From Candidatus Obscuribacteraceae bacterium (GTDB lineage: Bacteria > Cyanobacteriota > Vampirovibrionia > Obscuribacterales > Obscuribacteraceae), in assembly GCA_044226015.1 (NCBI GenBank), contig JBGAHS010000010.1, forward strand, positions 224,001 through 288,000: a stretch of DNA of 64,000 nt, written 5' to 3'. Position numbers and translations under genes: made by a program. Numbering within the stretch: the stretch's first letter is position 1; each line of letters starts with the position of its first letter. Positions 34,447-55,056 of the stretch are shown one piece after another. The notes under the pieces were generated by a model. That model did no database searches. It was not told the origin of the DNA and was given only the letters and a program-made list of their open reading frames with translations.

Positions 34447-35529
34447 TCACCCAGGCAGCTCAAACCAGAAGGCTGCGCCGCTTCCCGGCTTGCTGTCCAC
34501 TCCGATTGCTCCATCGTGGGCTTCGACTATTTCCTTGCAAATGGACAATCCCAACCCACTACCACCTCTCATTCGGCGGTCTGGTGAGTCAAGTTGTTGA
34601 AACTTTTCAAATAATTTGGTCTGGTCGTAGGCCGAAATTCCTGGTCCATTGTCGCTGATGTTCACCCGCCCTCTGCCATTCATTCTGGAAACGGACACTC
34701 TGACCACTGAATTTGGAGGTGAGAATTTGACAGCGTTAGACAGTAGGTTCTCGGTGACCTGGAGAATTCGCTGGGTATCCGCATAGACAAATGGGTACCC
34801 GACGCTTTCGAAACTAAGCTCGATGCCAGCTTGCTCTGCCACGGGTTTGAAGTCAGTTACAGCGTTTTCTATTAGCTCCGCAAGAGAAACGCGTTGTTTC
34901 AATAGTCGAAACTTGCCTGATTCGAGTTTCTTGAAGTCCAAAATGTTTTCAATCAACTTCCAGAGGCTCTCCGCCGCTCGGTTGGAGATGTCGATGAATT
35001 TCATGGCGGTATCATTTATGGTGCCAGCTTCTCCGTCGCTTATTACGGATAGCGAGCTTTTAATTTTGGCAATCGGACTTCTTAGCTCGTGTGAAACGAT
35101 TGAGTAAAAATCGGAAATCCTCTGCTCTGCTTCGATGCGCTTTGTGATGTCGTTTTGAACACCCACGAAAGCGAGCAGCCTACCTTGCTTTGAATGAACT
35201 GGCGATATCGTGAGCTCATTATAAAATCGCTCTCCGTCTTTCTTGTAGTTTTTGAGAATGACGGTGACAGCAACTTCTTCTTTGAGTGCCCTTTTTATTT
35301 CTCTGATTGCTTCCTGGTCGCGGTCTTCCCGTTGCAAGAAGCGGCAATTCTGTCCGAGGATTTCATCGGCGGAATAACCCGTGATATCACTGAAAGCCTT
35401 ATTCGTATAAATAATCGGGTTGTCTGGCTTCGTGGGGTCGGTGATGACGATTCCGTTTCTGACGCTCTCAATCGCTCTGAACATGAGAGCAAGCTGGTCT
35501 TGTTCACTCAGTTCGTCTTCAATAAACAT
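34447..35529 (-). CDS. LOV-domain (flavin, blue-light) histidine kinase
   Basis: DNPIIY, GQNCRFLQ, NYKKDG, FVGVQND; H-box VSHELRSP; NLLSNAVKF; GSGLGL. Confidence 0.92.
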   Translation of the reverse strand: MFIEDELSEQDQLALMFRAIESVRNGIVITDPTKPDNPIIYTNKAFSDITGYSADEILGQNCRFLQREDRDQEAIREIKRALKEEVAVTVILKNYKKDGERFYNELTISPVHSKQGRLLAFVGVQNDITKRIEAEQRISDFYSIVSHELRSPIAKIKSSLSVISDGEAGTINDTAMKFIDISNRAAESLWKLIENILDFKKLESGKFRLLKQRVSLAELIENAVTDFKPVAEQAGIELSFESVGYPFVYADTQRILQVTENLLSNAVKFSPPNSVVRVSVSRMNGRGRVNISDNGPGISAYDQTKLFEKFQQLDSPDRRMRGGSGLGLSICKEIVEAHDGAIGVDSKPGSGAAFWFELPG

Positions 35530-35555
35530 TTTTTCCTCTAAGCAAATTTCTACAT

Positions 35556-37001
35556 TTACTGATTCATTTCTGAATTCTCAATTCGATCTGTTGCTTCTTT
35601 TGTCTCCATAGGTTTGAGATAAAACTCTTCGCATAATAGCAGACCTACTGATGTAATGGGAATTGCTATTAGTGCACCGGCTACACCAAGCAAAGTAGCG
35701 CCGATCAAGATGGAAAATAAAACGATCAGTGGATGCAGGTCAACACTCTTGCCGAGCAGTTGGGGAACGATGAAACTGCTCTCCACCCATTGCTCAATTC
35801 CATACAGTAAAAAGACGAGCCCCGCCAACACCGGTCCACCCCCAGTGTCTTGATTCAAGGCAACGAGAATAGCGCTGCCGGTTGCAAGAAGAGAACCTAC
35901 GAATGGAACAAGATTAAGCAGCCCTGCCATAATTCCTAGAATCAAAGCGTATTTTAATCGCAGAATGGAAAAGCCGATGAAAAGAAACGCAGCGACGCAG
36001 AGTGATACGAGCAACTGTCCACGCACGTATCCTCCCAGTCGATTCTCCAGAGGACGTATCAGCTGTGCCCATCTAGAGCGTTTGGGTTCGGGCAGCCATC
36101 GGAGTATTTTCGGCCAAAGCGATTCGGCTTCCACAACAAAGTATGCTGCAAGGAACAGCGTGAGCACCACATTTCCCAGCAAACCAAGAACGCCAGCCGT
36201 CAGGTCTATTGTTTTGGACAGCATTTTGCTTACGAAGTCTTGCAGAGTGTCGCTCTTCACTGAAAAGTTTTTGACGAGATGACTTGCAGCAGTAGATGTT
36301 GCTTGAATTTTGCTTACTGTTTCTGTTTTGCTATGTATTACTTTGTTGGAACCTTCCTCGTTTCTGTCTGAGCCAGTAAGTTCATCGCTATCAACCAGGC
36401 TTGATTTTGCGGACTTGCCTGAACTTTTACCAGGTTCATCAGAAGCAGATTTGGGGCTGGAAGTTTGACTTTCTTCAGCCGCGCTTTCTTTACTCGCGTC
36501 TTCGTTGCCAGATGCTTCTTTACTCGCGGCTTCTTTGTCAGATGCTTCTTTGACAGATGCGTCTTTGCCTGTGCTTTCGGTCTTCGAGTCTGGTGATTTT
36601 TCCGGTTCCGAACCAGTCGTTGTCAGCTTACTGTTTCCCGATGGGAGTGCTTTCGCGTTCTCAACCAAAACTGCTGCTTTGTCTAAATAGGTTGGAAGAT
36701 TGTCATACAATTGACCTGCTTCCTCTCTAATTGTGGGTACGGCTGATATTGCTAGAAAAATGTAGATCCCCATTGTAATCAGATACATGCAGAGCACCGT
36801 AGCAATGCGCGGAACTTTTCGTGCTTGTCCCCACTCGGCCACGGGAGACATTGCTGACGCGATGGTCAAAGCAAAAATGAGGCAAATAATCAGCACCTTC
36901 AACTCAATGGCGATGTAGATAAAGAGTGCTGCAAGTAGGGCGAAAAGTACAGTTTTCAGCGCAATAGCAGTTGTTTGATTTTTCTCCGTCGGGCTGAGCA
37001 T
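35556..37001 (-). CDS. AI-2E family transporter with long S/K/E-rich insertion
   Basis: GGYVRGQL, LNLVPFVG, QWVESSFIVPQLLGKSVDLHP, GALIAIP. Confidence 0.9.
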   Translation of the reverse strand: MLSPTEKNQTTAIALKTVLFALLAALFIYIAIELKVLIICLIFALTIASAMSPVAEWGQARKVPRIATVLCMYLITMGIYIFLAISAVPTIREEAGQLYDNLPTYLDKAAVLVENAKALPSGNSKLTTTGSEPEKSPDSKTESTGKDASVKEASDKEAASKEASGNEDASKESAAEESQTSSPKSASDEPGKSSGKSAKSSLVDSDELTGSDRNEEGSNKVIHSKTETVSKIQATSTAASHLVKNFSVKSDTLQDFVSKMLSKTIDLTAGVLGLLGNVVLTLFLAAYFVVEAESLWPKILRWLPEPKRSRWAQLIRPLENRLGGYVRGQLLVSLCVAAFLFIGFSILRLKYALILGIMAGLLNLVPFVGSLLATGSAILVALNQDTGGGPVLAGLVFLLYGIEQWVESSFIVPQLLGKSVDLHPLIVLFSILIGATLLGVAGALIAIPITSVGLLLCEEFYLKPMETKEATDRIENSEMNQ

Positions 37002-37078
37002 CTTTTATTCCGCCTTTTATCTGTGAGAATTCTACATCAAAAATGATTCCCGGTCTTTTGCCCTTGAGTTTGCGCCAA

Positions 37079-38299
37079 TCATTTCTCGGATGATATCAGT
37101 TGAACCGCATAATCCAGAGCATCATTAACGTCTGGGAAAATCCCCCTGCATAATGGTCGAAGTGCGTTCTGTTTATTTTCGTCTCTGGCAATACCGAACG
37201 CTACAACATCAACTTCCATATTCGCTGCTTTCAATAATTCAGGAAGCCTTACCATAGGTTTGATTCCTGAAATCGTGTCTTCAAAAACATAGATTCTGAA
37301 CCGCTTTGAGCCGCTGAGATCGCGCAATTCCTGAGCGTCTCCGCTTCGGGTTGCGCGATAGGCTAAATTCAAAGTTCTGCTGTCTCCCGTGTTGAGCAGA
37401 GCAGCAAGAAACGCAGAAAGTGAATGGGTCAAATTCGGTTTAGTTAGCGCTTCTGATTTCTCATCGTGCTGAGCTGCTAACCATTCCATGCTTCCCATTC
37501 CTACTAGTGGGAAAATGTCAAGCTTCGCTGCTTGAGCTGCTATTTCGGCTTCAGGAGAATATCCCACTGTGTTGTCTATGTCGGGCGGAGGATGACTGGG
37601 TCTTGCAGTGTAAATTGCAACTCGAATTCGTTTGTCCAGGCTGAGTGCTTTGAGTTTCTCGCTGCTTGAGCTTGTCATCAAAACCTCATCAATTGTTTTC
37701 AACAATGATGGACCTTCATATGAACTGCCCAATCCGTAAGTCGAAGTGAAGTCGCTTCCTAGAATAATGTTTTGGAAAATTCTCGTTCCAAAGCTGTTGT
37801 ATGGCGAGCGCGTGTCGCTCATGAAACCATTTATTAGCGCAGAAAAAAACGCCTGGTTCCTATTACCCGAGAGTCCCTCAATCAAGATTTCTGAGAGGAG
37901 GTCTGGTGGATGACTGCTTTCACCGTGGTTTCGATAGTATTCTGCCAGGCTGATATAGTCGGGGCGGGGAGCACAAGGCGTCAGCGAAATTAGCTTGGAA
38001 AGCGCTTGTTCAGCAGTCAGCTCTATTTCTGTCGATTCTATTGATACTGTATTCAACTGCTCTGCGCAGTTTTTCAAAATTGCTGCAAATGCGATGTTTG
38101 TTATGTCCCACACATCGTGAATGCCCGTTGATTCCATGTGGGCAATTTCTTCATCACTCAAAATGAGTTCCTCAGAATTTTGAATTCCGGCAAGCTTACA
38201 GAGAAACTTCAAGCTGCTGTTTATGCCGACTTTGTACGCCAGTGGCGAAACAATGACACCATCTACGTCAAACAAGAATATGTGCTCAAAGTCGGTCAT
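37079..38299 (-). CDS. HAD-superfamily hydrolase with large cap (candidate histidine-pathway phosphatase)
   Basis: FDVDGV (motif I), YTARP (II), TKPN (III), FEDTISG (IV). Confidence 0.8.
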   Translation of the reverse strand: MTDFEHIFLFDVDGVIVSPLAYKVGINSSLKFLCKLAGIQNSEELILSDEEIAHMESTGIHDVWDITNIAFAAILKNCAEQLNTVSIESTEIELTAEQALSKLISLTPCAPRPDYISLAEYYRNHGESSHPPDLLSEILIEGLSGNRNQAFFSALINGFMSDTRSPYNSFGTRIFQNIILGSDFTSTYGLGSSYEGPSLLKTIDEVLMTSSSSEKLKALSLDKRIRVAIYTARPSHPPPDIDNTVGYSPEAEIAAQAAKLDIFPLVGMGSMEWLAAQHDEKSEALTKPNLTHSLSAFLAALLNTGDSRTLNLAYRATRSGDAQELRDLSGSKRFRIYVFEDTISGIKPMVRLPELLKAANMEVDVVAFGIARDENKQNALRPLCRGIFPDVNDALDYAVQLISSEK

Positions 38300-38315
38300 T
38301 CTTATTTTTGCTCGC

Positions 38316-39653
38316 TTAGTTTGGCTCGGTAAAGATATCGGATACTATCTCTGTGAATTTATTTTGTCCAGTGTGCTTGATGGAACCGAGAGCGATCGCG
38401 AGGGCTAGACCCAGCCATTTTATTGATTGCGGGTAGCGTTCTGCGAGTGTTCCATTTGGCACGTAATCAGCAAACAAATTTACAGTGAGGAAGGGACAAC
38501 AAAATAAAGAGCAGTGTAAATATTCCTTCCAATTTGCAGGAAGCAAATTTTTGCTCTTAAGCAGTCCAATCGTCGGTTGCAATAAGTGTGCTTTCTTTGC
38601 AGAAAGGTGTTGCAGCCTCAGAGAACTAGGGCAGAAATCGTGCTCTATGGTTATACGCTTGTTTTCGATCTCTGCGTTGAGAGTGATTTCACCAGCTACC
38701 TGCTCGGGGAAGTACATCCATCTAGCAAATATGTTGTGAAACAGTGGCTTCGTTAAGTCAAGGAGTGCATTGTGTCGACCGGCGAAGGCTGGGTCAAACA
38801 TCTTCAACTCGTGGTTTTGTCCGACCAGGAATATATTGCCATTATGAGCATCTCCGTGTCCCACAACAGTGGCAGTCATCTCTTCTGGCGCATTTTCGGG
38901 AGTGAGAAGCTGGACGCTGCGTTCGATTATTTTTGCAAGAGTATCTTCGTAGCTCACTCCATTGATTGTCCAGGTGCAGTCAGCAAGCTGTTCAAAGTTA
39001 ATGCTTCTTTCTTTGAGCGTGATGGCTTTGCTTTTGTAAAACAGCCCCAGTCGCCCATCTGCTCGGAGGCGATGTGCGAAGAGCTGGTTTATCGGAGCGC
39101 TGGACTGTTTAGATTGCGCTGTAAGTTCGAGCGATTTCTCGTAAATTGAAAATACCTGTTTCTCAAGTTCAATTTGTCCATCGAGATATGTTTCTGTCTT
39201 ATTGCTCTTGTTATTTTCTGAACTCGGATGAGAATTGGAATTAGAGCCAGCGCCCGATTCGTTGCCCTGTGAATTCTTGAGGATGATGTCCTCTGACTCT
39301 TTCAGCTTGTCGAAGAGCGTAGGGTAGGTCAGAATTTCATAAAGCGCAATTTGTTTTCCGGGTCTATGTTGAATTTGTTTAGCCGAAACTACTGGATATC
39401 CCGCTTCTGCCAGTGATTTTGCATTGTAGTACTCCGAGACTTGCTCGTTTTCTTCAACGTGAGTCTTGAAGAATACTCTTTCATTATTTGAGTATGTTAT
39501 AAATCCATTTATGGAGTTGAGGGACTCCGGTCTTGGAGTCAACTCGACCTTCGTTATTTCGGTGTCTTCGTTTTCTTGTAAAAACCTGAGTAGTTCCAGT
39601 TCCGCTCGCTGTTTCTCACTAAACTGCAATTTCTGAATCTCTAGAAGTTGCAT
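38316..39653 (-). CDS. APH/choline-kinase-fold phosphotransferase-like protein of unknown function
   Basis: FFKTH, HGDAHNGNIF (Brenner-like motif), FDPAFAG. Confidence 0.7.
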   Translation of the reverse strand: MQLLEIQKLQFSEKQRAELELLRFLQENEDTEITKVELTPRPESLNSINGFITYSNNERVFFKTHVEENEQVSEYYNAKSLAEAGYPVVSAKQIQHRPGKQIALYEILTYPTLFDKLKESEDIILKNSQGNESGAGSNSNSHPSSENNKSNKTETYLDGQIELEKQVFSIYEKSLELTAQSKQSSAPINQLFAHRLRADGRLGLFYKSKAITLKERSINFEQLADCTWTINGVSYEDTLAKIIERSVQLLTPENAPEEMTATVVGHGDAHNGNIFLVGQNHELKMFDPAFAGRHNALLDLTKPLFHNIFARWMYFPEQVAGEITLNAEIENKRITIEHDFCPSSLRLQHLSAKKAHLLQPTIGLLKSKNLLPANWKEYLHCSLFCCPFLTVNLFADYVPNGTLAERYPQSIKWLGLALAIALGSIKHTGQNKFTEIVSDIFTEPN

Positions 39654-39688
39654 TGTTCCCTCAATGATGGTTGATAGATTTGCGGAGC

Positions 39689-41017
39689 CTAGACGCCTGT
39701 TTTGTCGAAGCGAATGTCAACGCTGCGCTTGTGTGCATCAAGACCTTCTACGGTAGCGATTGTCTGCACAATCGGGCGCAGGCGCTCAAGTCCTTTCTTC
39801 GTCAATGTCGAGTACTGAACTCGCTTCATGAAAGTCCAGACTCCGACTGCTGATGTTTGCCTTGCCCAGCCGCTGCTGGGAAGTACGTGGTTAATGCCGG
39901 TGGCATAATCACCGGTCGCGACCGGATTGTAGTAGCCTAAAAACGCCGAGCCGGCATTCTCTATTTTTTCTAGCGTAGCTTCCGGTTTTTCCGTGAGTAT
40001 TTCAAGATGTTCAGGCGCATACTCGTTTGTGAAATCGATGGACTTGTCTACAGATTTTGTGACTACGATTGCGCTGTAGTTTGCCAGGGCAGTCTCAATA
40101 TACTTCTGACGGCTAAGTTGCTGATACTGCTTCTCTACTTCAGCTTGTGTCAGCTTTGCCAACTCCATTGATTCCGTAACTAGAACACCGGCAGAGTCTG
40201 GTCCGTGTTCGGCTCTAGCGAGAATGTCGGCTGCGCAATATTTTGCCTTAGTAGCAAGGTCAAGCTCGCTTGTGGTGCTGCCATCGGCCAAAATGATAGC
40301 TTCACTAGGACCCGCTGGCATATCGATGCCTACCTTGCTCTGACAAAGAATCTTGGCGGCGGTGACGTATGGGCTGCCTGGTCCAGCAATGATCTGCACC
40401 GGTGCTATCGTCTTCGTGCCGTAGGCCATAGCTGCAATTGCTTGCGCTCCACCTACCCGATAGATTTCACTGACACCACACTCATTTGCTGCGATGAGAA
40501 CCTCGTACCCTTTGCCCCTTGGTGAAATGCAAGAGACTATGCGTTTGCACCCGGCTGTTTTGGCTGCGATTGCCAGAATTTGTTGCACTGTAGGAAACGG
40601 GTTTTTTCCGCCTGGTACATAGAGTCCGGCAGATTCTATCGCTGTCCACTTCTCACCAACTGTAATACCATCTTCCAGTTGCTTTTCCCAGTTTGGAACT
40701 TGCTCTTTTTGGAGTTCATGAAAGCGCCGAGCTAACGAAATTTGTTCCTTGATTTTTTCGATTATTTGTTTGTCTGTGTTCGCGTAAGCCTCATCGATGT
40801 CTGCTTTACTAACAACCAACTTTGACTGTTCATATTCAGTGTCGTCCCATTCTCTGGTGAAGCGAACCAGTGCTTCGTCACCGTGCACACGCACTTCTTG
40901 TATGATCTCCTCGACTTTTGGTTTTACATTATCTATGTCCTGGTTTGCGCGCTGCATCACCTTTTCCATTTCAGCTGCAGAGCTTTTATCCAGTTCGTAT
41001 ATTTTGATCATGTTCAT
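39689..41017 (-). CDS. hisD: Histidinol dehydrogenase, divergent
   Basis: YVPGG, GGAQAIAAMAYGT, IDMPAGPSE, APEHL, GDYATGINHVLP, EGLDAH. Confidence 0.88.
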   Translation of the reverse strand: MNMIKIYELDKSSAAEMEKVMQRANQDIDNVKPKVEEIIQEVRVHGDEALVRFTREWDDTEYEQSKLVVSKADIDEAYANTDKQIIEKIKEQISLARRFHELQKEQVPNWEKQLEDGITVGEKWTAIESAGLYVPGGKNPFPTVQQILAIAAKTAGCKRIVSCISPRGKGYEVLIAANECGVSEIYRVGGAQAIAAMAYGTKTIAPVQIIAGPGSPYVTAAKILCQSKVGIDMPAGPSEAIILADGSTTSELDLATKAKYCAADILARAEHGPDSAGVLVTESMELAKLTQAEVEKQYQQLSRQKYIETALANYSAIVVTKSVDKSIDFTNEYAPEHLEILTEKPEATLEKIENAGSAFLGYYNPVATGDYATGINHVLPSSGWARQTSAVGVWTFMKRVQYSTLTKKGLERLRPIVQTIATVEGLDAHKRSVDIRFDKTGV

Positions 41018-41022
41018 AACCT

Positions 41023-42258
41023 CTAGTTCTTAAGGGCGAATTTTTCAAGTCGATTGCAAGCTTCCATGAGTTCGTCCTCTGCTGCTCCGAAAGAAAGTCG
41101 AATATGTTGTTCTCCGGTGGGACCAAAGGCAGCACCTGGCACTGTGATTACCTTGCCTTCCTTGAGTAATCTGACTGCATAGTCTATCGATGCTGCTCCA
41201 GAATTTATTTTCGGAAAAACGTAGTAACCACCCTGTGGTTGGTTGTAACTAAAAATATTGCTCAATCTGTCGAGCCTTTCGCAAACAAGGTCGCGTCGCT
41301 GCTTGAGCGCATCGCAGAGTTTCTGGATGCTCTTATCACCTTCGCCGTCTTTACCATTTGTAGCTTTCAGTGCGGCAAGAGCTGCAAACTGTGAAATTGT
41401 AGGAGCGCAAATGGCAAATGTGTCGTGAACCTTCAATACTTGTTGGAGAATGCGTTTGCTTGTATACATGAAGCCTACTCGCCAGCCTGTCATGCAATAG
41501 CGCTTTGAAAAACTGCAAGCTGCAATAATGTTTTCCTTGAGTTCCGGCATTGACATCAAGCTGAAGTATTCTGTCTCATCATAGATAAGGAAATCGTATG
41601 CTTCGTCGGTGACTATGAACAAGTTGTGTTCTAATGCTAGTTTTGCAATTGCCAGAAGATCCTCTTTTGCAAAAACTGTGCCTGTTGGATTGACAGGGTT
41701 GCATAAAACTATTGCTTTCGTTTTCTTGTTAATGGCTTTCTTGAAACCCTCAACATCTAGTTTCCAGCCGTCGTCTTCTCTCAATGGAACAAAGATGGGG
41801 GTGCCTTCAGCAAACAAAATCTGCTCAATATGTGACGCGTAGGTAGGCGTAGGAAGAATGACTTCATCACCTCTCTCTATGATGGTGCTGATGCCAGCTG
41901 CGAGAGCTTCCATACCACCACAAGAGATGAATATATTGTCGTCTGGGTCAACATCAACATTCTTTGTCCGTTTCAAGTCGGCTGCAATTGCCTGCTTCAG
42001 TTGCGGCATACCAGGTTGCATTGAGTATTTGCCTATCAGGCTGTCTTCCCGAGAAAGCTCTTCAATGACAGCCTGACGTATAAATTCTGGAGTGTTGAAT
42101 GATGGAATACCCTGCCCCAGCGTGACGCAACCACCAACTTGCGCTGCCAGAATGGGCATTTGTTTTATCGCGGAAACAGTTATTTGAGCCACTCGCTTAG
42201 CTATGCCAGCGTGATTCTCTTCCTGTCCTATGCCTTCGAAAACTGAACGACTCTGCAT
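41023..42258 (-). CDS. PLP-dependent class I aminotransferase, aspartate/aromatic type rather than HisC type
   Basis: GQGIP, CNPVNPTG, TDEAY, SFSKRYCMTGWRVG, HIRLSF; ATG 42258 overlaps the upstream TAA. Confidence 0.9.
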   Translation of the reverse strand: MQSRSVFEGIGQEENHAGIAKRVAQITVSAIKQMPILAAQVGGCVTLGQGIPSFNTPEFIRQAVIEELSREDSLIGKYSMQPGMPQLKQAIAADLKRTKNVDVDPDDNIFISCGGMEALAAGISTIIERGDEVILPTPTYASHIEQILFAEGTPIFVPLREDDGWKLDVEGFKKAINKKTKAIVLCNPVNPTGTVFAKEDLLAIAKLALEHNLFIVTDEAYDFLIYDETEYFSLMSMPELKENIIAACSFSKRYCMTGWRVGFMYTSKRILQQVLKVHDTFAICAPTISQFAALAALKATNGKDGEGDKSIQKLCDALKQRRDLVCERLDRLSNIFSYNQPQGGYYVFPKINSGAASIDYAVRLLKEGKVITVPGAAFGPTGEQHIRLSFGAAEDELMEACNRLEKFALKN

Positions 42259-43493
42259 TAGCGACGTCTGCCTCCCAGTTCTGCTTCGATTTCCTTCCAT
42301 TCGATGCCTTCATCTACCGCCAAAACTGACATCATAAAAATAAGGTCTGCGATTTCCCAGCGGAGGTTGTCTTGTGATGTGTAGTTTAAGACCTCTTCTG
42401 ACTCCTCAGCAATTTTTGCAAGTAATTCCTTTCGGTCTGCAAACAGTTTGGCAGAATAAGAGTTCGGCAATGCATGCTTCTTGCGATTCTGTAGTGTTTC
42501 ATAAAGTTCGTGCAAGGTGAAATTTCGGTTCGCGCCAGCTCTGCCGAAGCAGCTATAGGTACCGTTATGGCAGGCGGCATCGGTTTGCTCAACTGTGAAC
42601 AAGATTGAATCTCTGTCACAATCAACACGGCATGATATGAGCTTTTGCGTGGAACCTGAAGTCAAACCTTTCTCCCAGATTTCCTTTCTTGAGCGGCTGT
42701 AGTAGATGCCTTTGCCCTCTGTTAAGGCTCGTTTGAGTGACTCAGCGTTGCTATAGGCAAGCATCAATACCTGTCCGGCTTTATCTTGGACAATCGTGGG
42801 GCAGAGACCGTCGCCTGCAAATTTGATAGCGCCGATTACTGACTCTGCCAGGTCGATTTTTCCGGTGTAAAGAGCCATTCCCACCTGAACATCAATGCCT
42901 AGCTTTGAAATCTCAACTATCTCTTCTGTTTTAGCGATGCCACCGGCTACGGTGAGTGGTGCCTTAATCTTTTCAATCAGTTCTTTAACTGCATCGATGT
43001 TCATTCCTCCCATGCCACCTTCGTCTTCTATGAAGGTGCTGAGAAAGCCAGAACAAAATGGAGCTAGTCTTTCGGCTCTTTCTATGAGTGTTTCACCGGT
43101 TGGGTTGACCCATCCTTTATCATAGACTTCGCCTTTCTTCTGGTCTAGAGCAACCATAACTGAAGTCCGTGGAAGTTTGCTGAGAAATTCGGGCGTGGCT
43201 GCAGTTCCGATGATAACTTGCCTGGCCCCAGCTCTCAGAATCGCTCTTGCTGTTTCGTGGGTTCTTATGCCACCTCCAACACGCGCATCAGCAACCCGGC
43301 AGATTCTTTTGATAAGCTCGAGGTTGCTTCCCTTGCCTAACGCTGCATCCAGGTCAATAACAGCAATTTCGCCATATCTACTGAATTCTGCCGCTAATTC
43401 TACGGGGTCTCGCTCGCTCTGCAAGACGAATTCCTTGCCTTGCTTTAACTGAACTGCTCGTCCATTTTGGATGTCTATACTTGGTATCAGCAT
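42258..43493 (-). CDS. hisA-hisIE: Trifunctional HisA-HisI-HisE fusion
   Basis: IPSIDI..G.AVQL.QG and VGGGIR (HisA); YYSRSR..IWEKG.TSG, DCDRD, ACH.G..SCF (HisI); SYSAKL, KIAEESEE, WEIADL (HisE). Confidence 0.9.
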   Translation of the reverse strand: MLIPSIDIQNGRAVQLKQGKEFVLQSERDPVELAAEFSRYGEIAVIDLDAALGKGSNLELIKRICRVADARVGGGIRTHETARAILRAGARQVIIGTAATPEFLSKLPRTSVMVALDQKKGEVYDKGWVNPTGETLIERAERLAPFCSGFLSTFIEDEGGMGGMNIDAVKELIEKIKAPLTVAGGIAKTEEIVEISKLGIDVQVGMALYTGKIDLAESVIGAIKFAGDGLCPTIVQDKAGQVLMLAYSNAESLKRALTEGKGIYYSRSRKEIWEKGLTSGSTQKLISCRVDCDRDSILFTVEQTDAACHNGTYSCFGRAGANRNFTLHELYETLQNRKKHALPNSYSAKLFADRKELLAKIAEESEEVLNYTSQDNLRWEIADLIFMMSVLAVDEGIEWKEIEAELGGRRR

Positions 43494-44371
43494 ATTCTCA
43501 CCGGTATGTGTCTGGCTTTAATTTGTTCCTTCAATTTGTTTGGAGTCCAGCGACCATCATGAAAGATTGTCGCTGCTAAAGCTGCATCAGCAAATGCATC
43601 TTCGAAAACTTCGATGAAACTATCTGGACCCTGGGCGCCACCAGATGCAATGACAGGCACTGATAATTCAGACGCAAATTTTCGCACCATTTCAATATCA
43701 AAGCCCTTCTCTGTACCATCTCTGTCCCACGAGGTCAAAAGTATCTCGCCCGCTCCGCGCTTGACGCATTCCTGCGCCCATACAAAAGCATCTTTGTTTG
43801 TGTTAAGTCTGCCACCTTGAATGAGCACATCCCAGACAATTTCTTGAAAGGAATCTGCTTCTGTCTGGCTTGCGTCAGTCGTTGAGGTTATTTCGCCAAG
43901 CTTGCTCGATGGAGTCTTCGCATCTTCATTAGCCTCGCACCTGGCTTGCTTGCTTGCTCGTTTGCGCGCGTCTATTGCAAGCACGCAACATTGTGAACCG
44001 CAAGCTTCTGCTATTTCTGTGACGAGTTCTGGACGCTTTACTGCTGACGAATTAACCGAAACCTTGTCGGCACCACAGTTGAGAAGTGTCTTCACGTCGG
44101 AGAGCTGAGAGATGCCACCGCCTACGGTGAAGGGAATTGAAAGTTTGTGAGCCACCTTCTCCACAAGAGTGTATATTGTCTTTCGCTCTTCGTGAGAGGC
44201 TGTGATGTCCAGAAACATCAATTCATCTGCTCCATCTTCTTCATATCGTTGAGCAAGTTCGACAGGGTCACCCATATCACGCAAGTTCGTGAAGTTGACC
44301 CCTTTGACTGTGCGTCCATTGGCTACGTCGAGGCAAGGAATGATTCTTCGGCATAGATTATTTAGCGACAT
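43487..44371 (-). CDS. hisF: Imidazole glycerol phosphate synthase cyclase subunit
   Basis: RIIPCLDV, VKGVNF, FLDITAS, GADKVSVNS, GAGEILLTS.DRDGT, PVIASGG. Confidence 0.96.
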   Translation of the reverse strand: MSLNNLCRRIIPCLDVANGRTVKGVNFTNLRDMGDPVELAQRYEEDGADELMFLDITASHEERKTIYTLVEKVAHKLSIPFTVGGGISQLSDVKTLLNCGADKVSVNSSAVKRPELVTEIAEACGSQCCVLAIDARKRASKQARCEANEDAKTPSSKLGEITSTTDASQTEADSFQEIVWDVLIQGGRLNTNKDAFVWAQECVKRGAGEILLTSWDRDGTEKGFDIEMVRKFASELSVPVIASGGAQGPDSFIEVFEDAFADAALAATIFHDGRWTPNKLKEQIKARHIPVRIC

Positions 44372-44972
44372 TTTGCACCCACGTTCTTAAGAGTGTTTTG
44401 CCAAAACTGCTGCTTTTTTCTGGGTGAAACTGAAATGCCGTTATGTTGCCTGTCTTCACTGCTGCGCAGAACTCTACATGATAGTTAGAGCTATACAGAA
44501 TGGAATCAGCGTCTCTGGGTGCTGGGTAGTATGAATTTACAAAGTATACAAAGCCTGATTCGGGAAAGCCTTCATTGCCATTTTTTCGTTCTATCTGGTT
44601 CCAGCCAATTTGAGGCACTTTGCCTTCCTGGAATTTACGCACCGTGCCTGGTATCAGCCCGAGACCTGGCACTCCTTCGGCTTCTTCACTTGAGTCAAAG
44701 AGTATTTGCATTCCCACACAAATGCCCAGGTAGGGAGTACCTGCTTTTACGAGGTCTCTCACTCTGGCATCAAATGAGCTTGCTTTGAGATGCTGCATCA
44801 CAGGTCCAAACGCCCCTACTCCAGGCAGCAAGACCGGCTTGTCACCGCGTGGTGGATTTTCGAGGTCAGCCATGCTGAAATCCAGTTCCAGCATTTCAAG
44901 GCAGCGGCGAACACTGCCAATGTTTCCTCCACCCACGTCAACTAAATCGACTTTTGCCACCATCTTTCGCAC
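44358..44972 (-). CDS. hisH: Imidazole glycerol phosphate synthase glutaminase subunit
   Basis: GNIGSV, LPGVGAF, GICVGMQ, PQIGWN, QFHPEKS. Confidence 0.95.
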   Translation of the reverse strand: MRKMVAKVDLVDVGGGNIGSVRRCLEMLELDFSMADLENPPRGDKPVLLPGVGAFGPVMQHLKASSFDARVRDLVKAGTPYLGICVGMQILFDSSEEAEGVPGLGLIPGTVRKFQEGKVPQIGWNQIERKNGNEGFPESGFVYFVNSYYPAPRDADSILYSSNYHVEFCAAVKTGNITAFQFHPEKSSSFGKTLLRTWVQNVAK

Positions 44973-44977
44973 CCAAC

Positions 44978-45862
44978 TCAGGTCACAATTTTCTCAAGCT
45001 TGTATTCCAAAATATCAGTGGCGCCTAGCTTGACTAATTTGGGAATGAGGTCTGGAACCTCTTTTGTGCTCACTGCAACTTTTACTGCATAGCCGTCACT
45101 GTTGTGTAGTTTGGAAACTGTGGGTGCTTTCATGCATGGCAGGTCGCCAACGATTTTGTCGAAGACATTTGCCGGCACATTCATTTCCAGAAGTACTTTT
45201 TGTCGTGCTTGCAAAGTACTCTTCATTAGCATGGTCATTTCTTCAAGCTTTTCGCGCTTTTCGGGATTGTCCAGAGCGGCTTTATTACAGATGAATCGCG
45301 TTGAAGAGCGCATCAACTCTGCCACTATTTCAAGTCGATTTTGACGCAGGGTTGCACCGCTTGATGTGTTGTCAATGATAATGTCAGCATCCTCTGGCGG
45401 CAGAGCCTCTGTGGCACCATAGGCGTGAACAAAGACTGCATCAAGGTTTTGACTCTTGATGTAGTCATTTGAAATTCGTTGATATTCGGAAGCTACAATG
45501 ATTTTTCTGCCGTTGAAGGCTTCCTTTCCTGCGCTAACGAGTTCTTCCGGCATCGCGGCAACGATACGTACAGGGTCAAAACCAAGGTCTAGCAATTCGA
45601 CAACGTCTGCATTTTGTTCGTAAATCCAATCGCGACCAGCGAAGCCGCAATCATGCCGCCCGAGAGCAACCAATCCGGGAATGTTCTTCGCTCGAAGCAT
45701 TTTTGTGACTATGAAAGAGTCGTTGCAAACGGGTCTGTAAGACCTGCCCGTCTGAGAAAAGCCGATTCCAATCTGTTCGAGCAGGTGCAGAACCTTTTCC
45801 TGAATTCGACCATTTGGAAGAGTTAGTTTGAGCTTGTCATCGTAATGCTTTTCTGTTGTCAT
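44978..45862 (-). CDS. hisG: ATP phosphoribosyltransferase, long form
   Basis: LPNGR, GFAGRD, GATEALP, ADIIIDNTSSGATLRQN, C-terminal regulatory domain APTVSKL...GATDIL. Confidence 0.95.
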   Translation of the reverse strand: MTTEKHYDDKLKLTLPNGRIQEKVLHLLEQIGIGFSQTGRSYRPVCNDSFIVTKMLRAKNIPGLVALGRHDCGFAGRDWIYEQNADVVELLDLGFDPVRIVAAMPEELVSAGKEAFNGRKIIVASEYQRISNDYIKSQNLDAVFVHAYGATEALPPEDADIIIDNTSSGATLRQNRLEIVAELMRSSTRFICNKAALDNPEKREKLEEMTMLMKSTLQARQKVLLEMNVPANVFDKIVGDLPCMKAPTVSKLHNSDGYAVKVAVSTKEVPDLIPKLVKLGATDILEYKLEKIVT

Positions 45863-45998
45863 GTGTTGTCTCGTTTTGCCTGTTTTGCGGGCATTGCTGT
45901 ACGAGTTGCTAGTCTACTCGGTGTAAGCTGCCAAGAAGGGCAAGTCTAAACCTCGCTGTCCATTGTTGTAATGTACTGATGCCGTTTAGTTTCACCTG

Positions 45999-48578
45999 TT
46001 GCTTTTACGGTGCTGCAGCGGGATGCGAATGTGCTATTTTTGTCAGAAGCGATTTGATGCACTGAAAGGCTGCTCTGTGACAACGCAATCCTCAAAGAAT
46101 CCCGAAGAGAAGAGCGCAGAGCAAGAGGCTCGTGAGGCTGAATTTGCCAGATATATGGTTTATCGTCAGCCCGCTGATGATGCCATGTCTGCTGAAGATT
46201 ACGAACTAGCCATGCGGCTTTATGCTCAAGGTGCCCGCAAAACAATTGCGGACGGGTTGGAAAAAGAGAATCGGGCAGCGACAATGTTTGCGGGTGCTTG
46301 TGCTTGCGCCATGCGAAGTGAAAAGTACTCGTTGGCGCTGCGTTATTTGCGAAACTCTTTTGAGCATCTCAGTGAAAACGAGCCAGTGTTTGCTGACACG
46401 ATGAATTATTTAATCGATCAGATACACTCGCTTCCATATTATCTGAAGACCTCGGCTCAACGCGAGCTACTTGAATCGATTAAGTCGGAATACTATCAGA
46501 AGTTCTCATCATGTTTGCGACGAGCGTTCTTCTCTGCCCAGAAGAAATTAGCTGCACAGGCGCCAGAAGGCGAGGCTGAGAAACGGAAGCTTCATGGTGT
46601 CGATGTCATCGATAAGTTTCCGTTTCTGGAAGACCTTTTCTCGAAAGTGACGCAGTCTTACATCAAAAAAGAATATCTTGCCGGGCAGAACTTTCTTCAA
46701 TTGGCGCTGCTCGATTTCAAGCTGCCGGAAGAATACTTTCGCAAGGACAGGCAGCAGCCAAACCGAATTCCATTCCGCGTGGGAAAGAACTATTATTTCC
46801 GCATGACAGATCCATCAACTCGCCATAGGATTGTGAGGTGTGCTCAAAACGTTAACAGAAAAGGGAAAATAATTCTTTCGGGACAGGAAGTTTGTCCCCC
46901 CGATTATTTCATCAACTCCGAGCGTTATAGAAAAGATGGTAAGTACATCGCTTATGGCATCTCGAAACATGGCTCTGATTGGGAGGAATGGTACGTAAAG
47001 TCGACTGTCACTGGACGCCAAATTCCGCATTTGAAATTGGACATTCGTCATGGTGGCATTATGTTTCATCCCGATGGAAAAGGACTTGTTTACTGGAAAC
47101 AGGGAAAACCTGAGAATGTCGAAGACCATTTGAAAGTCGTCGAGAAAAGTGTTCGAATATACTACAAACCCTTGCATCCGAAAGATTCAAAAGAGCATTT
47201 GATTTATGCTCCGAAGGATGAAGAAGTAGACCGAGTGAATTTGAATTTCCTTATGGACGGCAAATTCATGCTTATCCAAGAGAAGCGAAAAGGCGAGACA
47301 AAGGGACGCTTTTATATTCTGAAGGCACCGAAAGCGCAGCTGATACCACTCTTCGCAGGGAAAGCACGAGACTGCGTTTACATGGGGTGGCGGCGCAACA
47401 AGTTGTATTTCGAGACCAACGATGCGGCGCCTAATGGAAAGGTTTTTTCGCTTACATTAGATGATGGTGGCAAGCCCGCGAAAGTGGAAACTGTGATTCC
47501 TGAATGCGAAAAGGTAATCAGTGAAACTTATCTTTTAATGGATAGAATTATGGTCAACTATCTTGTTGACAGAAGCACCAAATCTGAAATTGTGAGCTAT
47601 CCACTTGATGGTGGTGCCGCAGTGACTGTTCCTCTGCCGGCTGAAGGGATAGTTGATAATCTTAGTTGCAGCTATGACGACAGCAACCTATTTTTTAGTA
47701 TCAATAGTTTCAGCAATGCTAGCAGCATTTTTTTGCACAATTTGAAATCGAGAAAGACACGCCTTTATTTCGCACCGACGGGACAGCCTTGCCGCGACCT
47801 GGTCAGTGAAGTTGTGAACGTGAAGAGTAAGGATGGCTCTATCGTTCCTATGTGGCTTGTCCACAGAAAAAAGGTGAAACTTGGACCCGACACACCTGTT
47901 CTGATGATGGTGTATGGTGGCTTTAATGTGCCATGCTTACCATATTGCAATTACGAAATTTTGAGTTGGACCGAAATGGGAGGCGTCTGGGCTCAGCCTT
48001 ATCTTAGAGGCGGCGGTGAGCTTGGCGAGCATTGGCATGAATCTGCTAAGAAGCTCAAGAAACAGAATACATTCGATGATGCAATTGCGTGCGCAAAATA
48101 TTTGATCGATAACAAGCTTGCAAGTCCCGCTAAACTAGCGGTAAAAGGCGGCAGCAATGGCGGGCTGACTGTGGCCGTTTTGCTAAATCAAGCCCCTGAG
48201 TGCTTTGCCGCTGCAATCGCAAGTAATGGGCTTTACGATATGCTCAAATTTCAAAATCACACTATAGGCTGGGCTTGGGAGTGTGATTATGGCAGCGTCG
48301 CGAAGAAGAAAGAGTTCCAGACCATATTCTCTTACTCGCCCATACATAATCTTCGAAAGGTCTCAAGATTTCCAGCTCTCTTATTGTGCGCTAGTGAAGG
48401 AGATGACCGTGTGCCGCCCTGGCACACAATGAAATACCTGGCTGAACTCAGGCAGCATGTACCAGCAGAGTCAATCTTAGTATTGCGAATCGAGCGCAAG
48501 AGTGGTCATGTAAGTCACCGTAGTAGCTGGGAGATTCGTGATCAGCAAGCGTTTTTGAAGCAAGTGCTCGGAATGTAG
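45999..48578 (+). CDS. Prolyl oligopeptidase (S9A) with helical N-terminal extension
   Basis: SKDGSIVPM, YGGFN, RGGGE, KQNTFDD, GGSNGG (Ser), DDRVPP (Asp), SGH (His); start uncertain. Confidence 0.9.
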   Translation: MLLRCCSGMRMCYFCQKRFDALKGCSVTTQSSKNPEEKSAEQEAREAEFARYMVYRQPADDAMSAEDYELAMRLYAQGARKTIADGLEKENRAATMFAGACACAMRSEKYSLALRYLRNSFEHLSENEPVFADTMNYLIDQIHSLPYYLKTSAQRELLESIKSEYYQKFSSCLRRAFFSAQKKLAAQAPEGEAEKRKLHGVDVIDKFPFLEDLFSKVTQSYIKKEYLAGQNFLQLALLDFKLPEEYFRKDRQQPNRIPFRVGKNYYFRMTDPSTRHRIVRCAQNVNRKGKIILSGQEVCPPDYFINSERYRKDGKYIAYGISKHGSDWEEWYVKSTVTGRQIPHLKLDIRHGGIMFHPDGKGLVYWKQGKPENVEDHLKVVEKSVRIYYKPLHPKDSKEHLIYAPKDEEVDRVNLNFLMDGKFMLIQEKRKGETKGRFYILKAPKAQLIPLFAGKARDCVYMGWRRNKLYFETNDAAPNGKVFSLTLDDGGKPAKVETVIPECEKVISETYLLMDRIMVNYLVDRSTKSEIVSYPLDGGAAVTVPLPAEGIVDNLSCSYDDSNLFFSINSFSNASSIFLHNLKSRKTRLYFAPTGQPCRDLVSEVVNVKSKDGSIVPMWLVHRKKVKLGPDTPVLMMVYGGFNVPCLPYCNYEILSWTEMGGVWAQPYLRGGGELGEHWHESAKKLKKQNTFDDAIACAKYLIDNKLASPAKLAVKGGSNGGLTVAVLLNQAPECFAAAIASNGLYDMLKFQNHTIGWAWECDYGSVAKKKEFQTIFSYSPIHNLRKVSRFPALLLCASEGDDRVPPWHTMKYLAELRQHVPAESILVLRIERKSGHVSHRSSWEIRDQQAFLKQVLGM

Positions 48579-49590: not shown

Positions 49591-50664
49591 GTGAGGGTAT
49601 TTCTTTCAGTGAACAACTCTATTAACTCACCGCTGGAAATGGCTATGGATGCGCCTGTCCTGCATACATTTATTTCTTATCTGGCTGAAAAGAAAAAAGA
49701 ACTTGAGGACAATCCGAACGGGCACATCAAAATTCAACTAAATCGTGACTTTATCTGGCGCGTTAGAGAGTCGTTCAGGCAGAACATCCTTGATGGCGAG
49801 CGACACATGCATACTCTTGCGCACCTTCTTGCCACTCATTTGCTGGATGGGGAATTTGACCTGCACAGCAACGTAATCGGCATTTTGCCGGAAGGTGATC
49901 GTCCGTTCTTAATCAGGGAGAGAATCACACAGGAAACGTTGCTCTCCGTGCTAGATATTGATCTCGGTAATCACTTGCTAGATAACTTTCGCTATCAAAA
50001 AGACCGTGCTTGGCTGCCACTAAATTTGTCGGCAAACTTTGTCGAGTACATTCCTAAAGCTGAGACGCAGTGGAAAGTTAATCGGCTAACCAGCCGTGTC
50101 AAGGCTGAGGAAGAGCTTTGGAACAAAGTCGCGGATGAGTTGTTTCAGCTTGATAAATTGGTGAGCAAAGACAAGCACTTACGTCAGTACAGCAAATATG
50201 TGAAGGACATTTTTGGAATCAAGATTGTTTGTGAGGACGAACGCACGTGTTGGAAAGTCCATGAGATGCTCAAAGATCTCACAACTACTGTTCCTGTTGA
50301 GCACGCAGCTGAAGGAAACCCTGACTTCGGTGAGAAGTTGCTCCAATTCATAGAGACAAAAGATTATCTCACCTGCAATCCCAATGCCATGAAGAAAACG
50401 GGCTGGAAAGCAATAAAGAGTGTCGTTAAGTGGTGTGATCGCTTGTTCGAATTGCAAGTTCAACCGCTGAGCAATTACTACCTCGAACTCGACCACATGT
50501 CTGGACCTTCCCACAGTTCGTTTAAAAGTTTCCGAGACAAGATGAGAGACGATGTCTCTGAAAGAGTTCCACTCTATGGATTCTATCGCAACTTGCTCAG
50601 GACTCTGTTCATGGGCAGCAATATGTCATTTGAATATGATCAGGCATCTGTCGAGATCAAATAG
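49591..50664 (+). CDS. Divergent RelA/SpoT synthetase-like nucleotidyltransferase (no hydrolase or regulatory domains)
   Basis: SRVK, KDIFGIKIV, KDY, ELQVQ in the order of Syn1-Syn4. Confidence 0.65.
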   Translation: MRVFLSVNNSINSPLEMAMDAPVLHTFISYLAEKKKELEDNPNGHIKIQLNRDFIWRVRESFRQNILDGERHMHTLAHLLATHLLDGEFDLHSNVIGILPEGDRPFLIRERITQETLLSVLDIDLGNHLLDNFRYQKDRAWLPLNLSANFVEYIPKAETQWKVNRLTSRVKAEEELWNKVADELFQLDKLVSKDKHLRQYSKYVKDIFGIKIVCEDERTCWKVHEMLKDLTTTVPVEHAAEGNPDFGEKLLQFIETKDYLTCNPNAMKKTGWKAIKSVVKWCDRLFELQVQPLSNYYLELDHMSGPSHSSFKSFRDKMRDDVSERVPLYGFYRNLLRTLFMGSNMSFEYDQASVEIK

Positions 50665-52156: not shown

Positions 52157-53677
52157 TTAGACTTTTGATTTTACCTTGAGGCAGCGGTCGGCCGCATATC
52201 TAGCAGAGGCTACAGCCCCTTCAAATGATTGTCCTCGAGAACTGCTGTGTGCAAAGCTCATCCATTCGGGGTCCATGCCTTGAATTTGAGAGCGAATTGA
52301 CCTGGAAGTCGTGCTTGGAACACTGAAAGCATGTCCCCATCGTGTCAAAACGACTTGATCAAGACTTCCCTGAAACCCCTCAATCATTGTGTTTAGCTGT
52401 TGGATTAATGAGTCTGCGAGTTTCTCGCGGTCATCCTCAGCCAATAGCTGAGCTCGTCCCATCGGTCCGTGCTCGTAAGGATGGTAGACAGTAAGGACAG
52501 AGCCCATTTCGGGTTTGTATCTACCCGTCGCCTGGTAAGGTGCCTCTGCCATCACCATCTGTCCATATGGGTACGGCTCATCGGCAAAACTCTGGTAGGG
52601 ATTTTGAAACACTTTCTTCTTCATGCAAAAGTTCGCGACTAAAAAGGCAGCATACTCCTGGCTTTGCAGCTTTTCTCTGTACGCTTGAGAAAGCTTCGGA
52701 GCTATGCGTGCGGTGACAAAGGGCGGTGCAGCTACAACAGCGTGTTTGCAATTGACTCGATGCATTTCGCCATTTTTGTCGCTGAAGACAACTGATGCGC
52801 CTTTCTCTGTTGGTTCGACGAGCCAGACAAAAGCAGAGGTTTGATATCGATCGGGGCTGCTGGCGTCGAGGCTTCGCTTCAAAGCCCGCGCGATGCCTGA
52901 GTTGCCGCCATCACATACGTAGCTGTCCGTAGTGAGTATGCGCATCAACCCGAGTCCAGCCGCTGCTGCAATGTAATCGGGACCGCCACAGTAAAACGAG
53001 CGGCAAATGTTGGATACAAGTTTCACAAAGCCAGCATCGTAACCTTTCAGAAGAGTATCGAAAGTCGAGCTAGCCAATTTTTGAGAGAGAGCGTCACGAT
53101 CTGCGCTGTTGGGGCTCTGTAACTTTTGGGACAAGTCGTTGCTTTCTTTGGCAAAGCGGTTTAATTCCGAATAGAATTTATCGGCACCAGAGTTCCCTTT
53201 CACCCATTTATTGTCATAGTGCCAGGCTATCTGGTCTGGAGGAATGAGGGCAGGTTTGAGTGAGAGTTCTTCAAACAGTTTGCCAATCTCACCGTCATGA
53301 GACCCAGTGCAAACTGCTCCCATCGAATAGTCTATGCCGTTGTAGGATCCACCGCTGGACGTTCCGCCAGTTTGCGCATATTGTTCAAGAAGCAAAAAGT
53401 TTTCGCCTTTGAGAAAGTGAGCAGAACAAAGCCCTGCCATGCCACCACCAACAATCACAAAGTCTACTTTTCGTTCTGCCTTATCTGGAAATTTGGGAGC
53501 TTCACCATCTCTCAGGCGATGGCCAAGAGTAAAGTCGTCGCCAGCCCAGGGTAGCACTTTGTAATTCCGCTCTTCTGAAGCGATGGCATGTTCTGAGTTG
53601 TTGAAAGTTCCCTGAAGTCCAAGGGTCGCTGCTGCTCCCAAAAGTTTGAGAAAATTCCGCCTGGAAGAATCTGGCAT
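52157..53677 (-). CDS. Tat-exported FAD-dependent oxidoreductase (amine oxidase-like)
   Basis: SRRNFLK twin-arginine signal; IVGGGMAG, TGGTS, TRWGHA, FEGA. Confidence 0.85.
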   Translation of the reverse strand: MPDSSRRNFLKLLGAAATLGLQGTFNNSEHAIASEERNYKVLPWAGDDFTLGHRLRDGEAPKFPDKAERKVDFVIVGGGMAGLCSAHFLKGENFLLLEQYAQTGGTSSGGSYNGIDYSMGAVCTGSHDGEIGKLFEELSLKPALIPPDQIAWHYDNKWVKGNSGADKFYSELNRFAKESNDLSQKLQSPNSADRDALSQKLASSTFDTLLKGYDAGFVKLVSNICRSFYCGGPDYIAAAAGLGLMRILTTDSYVCDGGNSGIARALKRSLDASSPDRYQTSAFVWLVEPTEKGASVVFSDKNGEMHRVNCKHAVVAAPPFVTARIAPKLSQAYREKLQSQEYAAFLVANFCMKKKVFQNPYQSFADEPYPYGQMVMAEAPYQATGRYKPEMGSVLTVYHPYEHGPMGRAQLLAEDDREKLADSLIQQLNTMIEGFQGSLDQVVLTRWGHAFSVPSTTSRSIRSQIQGMDPEWMSFAHSSSRGQSFEGAVASARYAADRCLKVKSKV

Positions 53678-55051: not shown

Positions 55052-55056
55052 TTCGT

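Follow-up and report, generated by a model that had tools for sequence, protein, structure and literature searches.

How might a bacterium complete the synthesis of histidine when its histidine operon lacks HisB, the imidazole-glycerol-phosphate (IGP) dehydratase (IGPD)? The question is raised by an operon of eight open reading frames (ORFs), all on the minus strand, at positions 37079-45862 of the window, by which we mean the whole 64,000-nucleotide stretch of DNA analysed here, from a Candidatus Obscuribacteraceae bacterium. In the order hisG-hisH-hisF-hisA/IE-AT-HisD*-KIN-HAD, genes for the first part of the pathway are followed by those for an aminotransferase (AT), a variant HisD (HisD*), a protein of the aminoglycoside phosphotransferase (APH)/choline-kinase fold (KIN) and a HAD phosphatase. 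A preliminary description of the locus had suggested an alternative late pathway in which KIN takes the place of HisB. This suggestion is strongly supported by an anti-correlation of KIN and HisB among genomes, by the decay of native HisD and by the loss of phosphate-binding residues from the accompanying transaminases. We consider that the operon is real and very probably provides a HisB-independent way to histidine, and we have little doubt that the KIN-containing cassette stands in for HisB. Its genes are as follows.

44978..45862, minus strand: hisG, long-form ATP phosphoribosyltransferase (TIGR00070, 145.9 bits, above cut-off; HisG_C domain)
44358..44972, minus strand: hisH, glutaminase subunit (TIGR01855, 187.8 bits, above cut-off)
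43487..44371, minus strand: hisF, cyclase subunit, which makes IGP with HisH (TIGR00735, 329.6 bits, above cut-off)
42258..43493, minus strand: hisA-hisI-hisE fusion (PF00977, PF01502 and PF01503)
41023..42258, minus strand: AT, class I aminotransferase of aromatic/aspartate type, 411 aa (below the HisC cut-off; PDB match to a Pyrococcus aromatic aminotransferase)
39689..41017, minus strand: HisD*, HisD-family NAD/Zn dehydrogenase (TIGR00069, 450.1 bits against a cut-off of 243.8; single copy, the only HisD in the source genome)
38316..39653, minus strand: KIN, APH/choline-kinase-fold protein, 445 aa (weak APH match; predicted model)
37079..38299, minus strand: large-cap HAD phosphatase, 406 aa (HAD motifs; no Pfam match)

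The gene order and the tight packing first described, with overlaps or gaps of at most 35 bp, agree with these coordinates: the intergenic spacings are +5, -14, -7, -1, +5, +35 and +16 bp when the ATG at 42258, overlapping the stop codon of hisA-IE, is taken as the start of AT (the longest AT ORF would give a spacing of -43). By family membership, HisG, HisIE, HisA and HisFH would make IGP as usual, and the same hisA-hisI-hisE fusion is carried by the HisB-type operons of relatives. The closest named relatives are Obscuribacterales/Melainabacteria, and an Rfam scan of 35000-48000 gave no match.

HisB and KIN across genomes

In the source genome (8.19 Mb, 92.2% complete), IGPD (PF00475) was absent at E<=1 in a hidden Markov model search in which 14 of 14 control genomes were positive, and tblastn of the genome with the IGPD of a relative gave no match; the dehydratase noted as missing from the operon was not found elsewhere in the assembly either. 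A scan of GTDB confirmed 289 KIN loci, and the results given here rest on the best 80 of these 289. For the tally of HisB, we left out two loci whose genome was already represented by another locus, as well as two genomes tested before; 76 remained. HisB was present in 2 of these 76 and in 0/3 relatives and is absent from the source genome, that is, in 2/80 KIN genomes, as against 99 of the 101 sampled Cyanobacteriia. The anti-correlation, which the preliminary description had named as a check, was therefore found. As a control for completeness, hisI was detected in 66/67 of the KIN genomes of other than Obscuribacterales type that were given to the search. KIN is rare in Cyanobacteriia (1/251 in the class sample) and in the phylum sample (2/301, source genome included), and because of this rarity both samples are poor for profiling. 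Within the organism's own family (30 sampled members plus the source genome), 17 genomes carry HisB alone, 4 carry KIN alone and 10 lack both; all of these 10 also lack HisD.

The pattern of KIN without HisB recurs in Obscuribacterales, in several cyanobacterial groups, in Chloroflexota and in one metagenome-assembled genome (MAG) labelled as actinobacterial, where the operon reads hisG-HAD-hisC-like-hisD*-KIN. A phototroph with a complete genome, Acaryochloris marina, lacks HisB, a canonical HisC and an intact canonical HisD; it has KIN, HisD*, HAD and a HisC derivative without the phosphate-binding residues.

What kind of protein is KIN? Its predicted model (predicted local distance difference test, pLDDT, 89.9) has the APH/choline-kinase fold and matches choline, methylthioribose, PsiK and LxmK kinases (Foldseek E 3e-6, probability 1.0). 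A structure comparison (VIA) gave Z 15.7 with an rmsd (root-mean-square deviation) of 6.6 over 306 aligned positions, the Z scores for PsiK (15.7), LxmK (15.2) and MtnK (15.2) being tied. The catalytic loop reads H266-G-D268-x-H270-x-x-N273, with K63 as the ATP lysine and D287 as the metal aspartate; K63, D268, H270, N273 and D287 are conserved in at least 95% of 71 sequences, as are R195, R201, K302, H306 and R346. Against Pfam APH (PF01636) the protein scores 15.6 bits, under the gathering score of 23.2, and some of its relatives pass. Of 8000 proteins scored, 1744 belong to the family at E<=0.001, and at 1e-10 it comprises 408 clusters. KIN is also found in fusions with HAD domains, which are of at least two types (P0121, for example, is a HAD-KIN fusion). 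The operon holds no lyase gene, no separate lyase partner for KIN was found, and the viral contigs contained no KIN relative. Kinase-driven dehydration is known from peptide maturation. We propose that KIN may be an ATP-dependent dehydratase that does the job of HisB by phosphorylation followed by elimination. More distant KIN-like clades (P0233, P0241, P0244-P0246, P0252 and P0253; the group P0216-P0263) include proteins of ~660 aa that are extended at the N-terminus and a group whose loop reads HGDDHAGN.

Dehydrogenase, aminotransferases and phosphatase

The alteration of HisD that had been reported for the operon is located at the zinc site. This site consists of Gln/His/Asp/His* in HisD, with ligand roles as given in the available portion of PMC5585171. 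HisD* retains the catalytic residues E336/H337 and the zinc ligands H271, D370 and H429, and has Arg268 in place of the zinc-ligand Gln. Among the 80 loci, hisD adjoins KIN in 58, and all 58/58 full-length HisD rows near KIN are variants. They are of two types: the Arg type, to which the source protein belongs, has Arg at the zinc-ligand Gln in 15/15 rows (13 distinct loci), and the RGKG type, with 43 rows, is marked by an RGKG loop and by three exchanges: Glu for that same Gln, Asn for the zinc Asp and Ala for His367 (E. coli numbering). Both types form one clade with support of 99/96, to be read with caution for long branches (the tree row labelled L253_RGKG is the L221 sequence). When 25 further KIN genomes, mostly with unlinked hisD, were checked, 24 gave a HisD, which was of the RGKG type in 24/24. 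A search for the HisD* motifs in 251 Cyanobacteriia returned 4 matches, one of them by chance (G514).

The native cyanobacterial HisD, in turn, has lost its zinc His in 18/18 of the KIN-positive, HisB-negative genomes read, and the catalytic Glu and/or His in 16/18; it is intact in the one genome that has both systems and in 6/6 controls with HisB alone. It is because of this decay that Acaryochloris marina has no intact canonical HisD. In many cyanobacteria the decayed gene is retained as a full-length ORF (L108, L101, L100, L110-L114, L121, L140-L149), possibly in a non-enzymic role.

The preliminary description held that AT is not HisC and is of an aromatic or aspartate type. This assignment stands: AT scores 125.8 bits on the HisC profile TIGR01141, under the cut-off of 276.55, and its best solved relative is the Pyrococcus aromatic aminotransferase (1GD9/1DJU, E 7e-77), and among the best 25 matches listed no NCBIfam equivalog cut-off was reached. 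Two sister operons, L021 and L027, are complete except for the AT gene. The accompanying claim that hisC is absent holds for the operon and fails for the genome, where a HisC-family gene (C7:279174-280235) scores 325 bits on TIGR01141, above the cut-off; a canonical hisC elsewhere was part of what had been named as contrary evidence, and in the form of this HisC-family gene some of that evidence is present. This gene is isolated, has Phe at the HisC tyrosine position (Tyr127) and is kept in 5/5 tested relatives that lack HisD, HisB and KIN, all of which suggests that it is probably a general aromatic transaminase.

The cassettes of cyanobacteria carry a HisC derivative that lies above the HisC cut-off. 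In 8/8 aligned copies it lacks the lid Tyr, Tyr127 and Arg337, residues that the accessible text of PMC4703992 ties to histidinol-phosphate binding. This derivative is the sole match above the cut-off in Acaryochloris and G189. A second match to the HisC profile in these two genomes reads in the alignment as what we take to be a CobD-like protein, and G202 gave no HisC match at 1e-45.

In the HAD protein, the motifs D11xD13, T231, K287 and E340/D341 are conserved in 11-12 of 12 rows, and a profile comparison matched it with a probability of 96% to a cyanobacterial cassette HAD that is Pfam-positive. We propose that the large-cap HAD may dephosphorylate IGP to imidazole glycerol. The cassette HAD occurs in 38/42 cyanobacterial KIN genomes as against 0/13 HisB controls. 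Its profile contained KIN sequence from two fusion proteins, and for this count only rows at profile positions 1-380 were used (39 genomes); a tally of 67/80 obtained with the profile is not a HAD count. A search for the source-type HAD gave 0/36, without a positive control. In 19 Chloroflexota loci (within L065-L098), an SqdB-like short-chain dehydrogenase/reductase (SDR), which resembles UDP-sulfoquinovose synthase (535 bits, cut-off 575), lies directly upstream of hisD*-KIN. We set it aside as a candidate dehydratase, since it occurs solely in Chloroflexota loci, whose synteny is conserved, and is missing from the operon described here.

The proposed route and its rivals

On what substrate might KIN and HisD* act? 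A distant clade of KIN offers a clue (80 of 326 metagenome loci; 107 plasmid records). Its cassettes contain an ABC transporter, an RGKG-type HisD* (RGKG in 30/30 full-length copies), a zinc alcohol dehydrogenase (Zn-ADH), an SDR, an LldD-like dehydrogenase and HutC, and often lie beside hutH/U/I/F. In the 35 loci of at least 9 kb, we counted HisD in 26, Zn-ADH in 20, HutC in 11, LldD-like genes in 11, HutH in 5 and HutU in 4. A crude scan for HAD motifs was positive in 2/80 of these loci, as against 34 ORFs in 83 genome loci. The annotated hisC3-hisD2 cluster on pSymA of Sinorhizobium meliloti 1021 (L253:4438-16503) resembles our operon in having an RGKG-type HisD* and a distant KIN, and differs in its ABC transporter, SDR, Zn-ADH, HutC and LldD-like genes and in the lack of a HAD; its host keeps the canonical pathway. 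The part of PMC2912261 available to us reports that hisC3, hisD2, ABC genes, hutUGH and Ntr genes all fall in a tolC mutant, the matching of its tags to pSymA ORFs resting on annotation and gene order; PMC8844928, in the portion at hand, names no ligand for the cassette. Such uptake or catabolic cassettes (L173-L252, L254 and L253; also with a HisC-like gene) occur in rhizobia and on Klebsiella plasmids. Because HAD-poor uptake cassettes lie beside genes of histidine degradation, we infer that KIN and HisD* act on an imidazole substrate that needs no phosphatase once imported; with the HisD*+KIN core, Proteobacteria would channel an imidazole polyol, taken up without a phosphate group, into the degradation of histidine.

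These observations led us to consider a reordered, HisB-free route to histidine via imidazole pyruvate, which, judging from the sequences, we regard as fairly probable. The HAD would first remove the phosphate of IGP to give imidazole glycerol. HisD*, with 2 NAD+, would then oxidise the C1 alcohol exposed in this way to the acid, and the C2 hydroxyl would be bound at the position that the amine takes in HisD, as in HpsN; the C2 hydroxyl of (2R,3S)-IGP is positioned as is the amine of L-histidinol. KIN, with ATP, would phosphorylate the ring-adjacent C3 hydroxyl, and elimination of the phosphate would amount to a net dehydration to the 2-keto compound. Finally, AT would convert imidazole pyruvate to L-histidine. 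For the two middle steps, oxidation first, via imidazole glycerate, is tentatively and only slightly preferred; that phosphorylation comes first, with Arg268 holding a 3-phosphate or HisD* acting on imidazole acetol, is almost as likely. The reordered route originally sketched, with its ending in imidazole pyruvate, is the best supported version, and its sequence HAD, HisD, kinase is not told from HAD, kinase, HisD.

HpsN (2,3-dihydroxypropanesulfonate (DHPS) 3-dehydrogenase) is a paralogue of HisD that, according to the available text of PMC11382572, carries out a four-electron oxidation of a 2-hydroxy primary alcohol with the C2 hydroxyl on zinc. HisD* resembles HpsN in having Val at the Glu356 position, and the oxidoreductase pair that flanks HpsN in the hpsNOP cluster resembles the SDR and Zn-ADH of the distant cassettes. 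HisD* differs in that it retains the imidazole-binding Glu424 and reads GKNPF where HpsN has the G-R-Y-A/S-H motif with its sulfonate-binding His, and it is nearer to HisD (E 7e-85) than to HpsN (E 2e-53 to 2e-56).

Some relatives appear to have switched between the two systems. In G045 (L266:8691-15341), the same operon skeleton contains hisC-hisB instead of AT, KIN and HAD; its HisD, 68% identical to the window HisD*, has Gln at residue 268 and groups with the Arg-type rows in the tree, where the support is moderate (89/62), a combination that makes a reversion to the canonical route likely. The cyanobacteria G242 and G272 have HisB, a HisC with canonical residues, a dead native HisD and an RGKG-type HisD*, and lack KIN; their HisD* keeps Glu259 and differs solely in one substrate loop. 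G272 carries a hisB-hisC-hisN trio (L256:678-3372). In L256 and likewise in L164 and L165, this trio, with hisN of the IMPase type, accompanies a dead native HisD, and the RGKG-type HisD has Thr at the zinc Asp position. The site of HisD* thus changes along with the pathway (Arg/Gln, loop), an observation that cuts both ways. Among relatives with HisB-type operons, L263:7051-8856, L264, L265, L269 and L270 have HisC fused to a HAD domain (~560-600 aa), and a 682-aa ORF at L268:9513-11561 matches both HisG and HisC.

Could the canonical order hold with a single exchange? KIN would then be an ATP-dependent IGP dehydratase that forms imidazole-acetol phosphate, followed by a transaminase (AT or the C7 HisC-family gene), the HAD as HisN and HisD* as an ordinary histidinol dehydrogenase. 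The anti-correlation with HisB is explained equally well in this way, the HAD-KIN fusions mirror the HisN-HisB fusion of E. coli, HisD*-clade enzymes do stand beside HisB in G242, G272 and G045, and HisC-family genes above the TIGR01141 cut-off exist in the source genome and in cyanobacterial cassettes. What it leaves unexplained is the occurrence of HisD* in every KIN genome read, the decay of native HisD in 18/18, the loss of phosphate-binding residues from cassette transaminases, the Gln in place of Arg268 beside HisB and the phosphatase-free uptake cassettes, and we consider it unlikely. A route in which dephosphorylation comes first and amination precedes oxidation (IGP to imidazole glycerol by HAD, to imidazole acetol by KIN, to histidinol by AT and to histidine by HisD*) would accommodate the loss of the phosphate residues, the HAD-free uptake cassettes, the HAD-KIN fusions and the work of HisD* on histidinol in HisB genomes. 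Class I aromatic aminotransferases, however, anchor an alpha-carboxylate, which imidazole acetol lacks; moreover, native HisD would suffice for such a route and yet decays, and the switch between Arg and Gln follows the presence of KIN or of HisB. This order therefore seems to us quite improbable.

Even less credit is due to the possibility that the four genes make or salvage some other imidazole compound while histidine comes from uptake or an unrecognised dehydratase. The catabolic or salvage-like character of the distant clade, its coexistence with the canonical pathway in S. meliloti and the two KIN genomes that keep HisB would be in keeping with it; it is opposed by Acaryochloris marina, a phototroph whose complete genome has neither HisB nor canonical HisC nor intact canonical HisD, by the position of HisD*, the sole HisD, inside the his operon and by the fact that KIN and HisB never overlap in the family sample. 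The option raised in the preliminary description, a metabolite derived from histidine, is unlikely because the KIN phototrophs would have no route to histidine.

Several observations weigh against the replacement of HisB by KIN and the route through imidazole pyruvate. Two KIN genomes, G175 and G156, have HisB: one exception is Pseudanabaena lw0831, with both systems intact, and the other a MAG with the canonical operon on another contig, possibly a mixed bin. Related genomes are not independent, and no P value is given; most of the genomes are MAGs of unstated completeness. Arg at the Gln position also occurs in one decayed native HisD (G223), and the HisD* clade can evidently act on histidinol after few changes, to judge from the switched relatives. 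The C7 HisC-family gene, above its cut-off, keeps the lid Tyr and Arg337, as does the HisC-like gene of the L064 operon, and the lid Tyr is also kept by rhizobial HisC3. Searches of 23 Chloroflexota KIN genomes, one of them run without a positive control, revealed no cassette-type HAD. Finally, we rejected the loss of the Glu356 equivalent as proof of a non-amine substrate, since HisD in the HisB-type operons of relatives also has Val at this position.

Known systems, neighbouring genes and meaning

How does the operon compare with what is known? With the canonical pathway it shares the first five steps within the same operon, the HisD fold with catalytic Glu/His, a HAD phosphatase and a pyridoxal-phosphate transaminase; it differs in having no IGPD, a non-HisC transaminase, a HisD with the zinc-ligand Gln replaced and an extra kinase-fold gene. 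KIN shares its fold and all phosphotransfer residues with the small-molecule kinases MtnK, PsiK and choline kinase and with the peptide dehydratases LxmK/LxmY and TvaE, which are driven by a kinase, yet its identity to APH/choline-kinase-fold kinases is 10-14% (rmsd 5-7 A) and it falls below the Pfam APH cut-off; unlike dehydratases of the LxmK/LxmY type, it has no separate lyase partner that we could find, and its proposed substrate is an imidazole polyol or acid. In the literature searched (few subscription journals, no supplements), we found no account of a HisB-free route to histidine. The accessible part of PMC9798254 describes the phosphatase as the only non-conserved step of the histidine pathway, and GapMind 2026 (PMC13759103), as far as its available text goes, lists gaps at hisN and hisI and no alternative HisB. 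Thus, the folds are known, and for the route and the activity of KIN no known member was found in that literature.

Elsewhere in the window, a gene for an AI-2E transporter lies 77 bp downstream of the operon and is not conserved in sister operons. A gene for an MbnB/TglH/ChrH (DUF692) enzyme (PF05114, 241 bits) lies upstream of that for a flavin amine oxidoreductase with a twin-arginine-like leader (53738-55105 and 52157-53677, minus strand), possibly a peptide-modification locus. On the plus strand, 28690-30576 encodes a protein with a caspase domain and TPR, and 49591-50664 a small RelA/SpoT-domain protein directly upstream of a sigma-70-like gene.

On balance, we lean towards the view that IGP can be converted to histidine by a second route, by way of imidazole glycerol and imidazole pyruvate, which would rely on a new class of ATP-dependent dehydratase with a kinase fold and on a re-specified HisD. 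In Obscuribacterales, Chloroflexota and scattered cyanobacteria, this route would have taken the place of HisB, HisC and native HisD; it would have been reversed in at least two lineages, and a catabolic counterpart in rhizobia and other Proteobacteria would scavenge an imidazole polyol for nitrogen. Histidine synthesis has been regarded as one conserved route, variable at the phosphatase step alone; a HisB-free route, if true, would add a new branch to central metabolism. It would close the gap in the cultured phototroph Acaryochloris marina, correct false calls of auxotrophy in genome models, add a new enzyme activity to the APH fold and give the hisD2/hisC3 cluster of S. meliloti a testable function. 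For the organisms that carry it, such a route would mean less dependence on the Mn-dependent IGPD.

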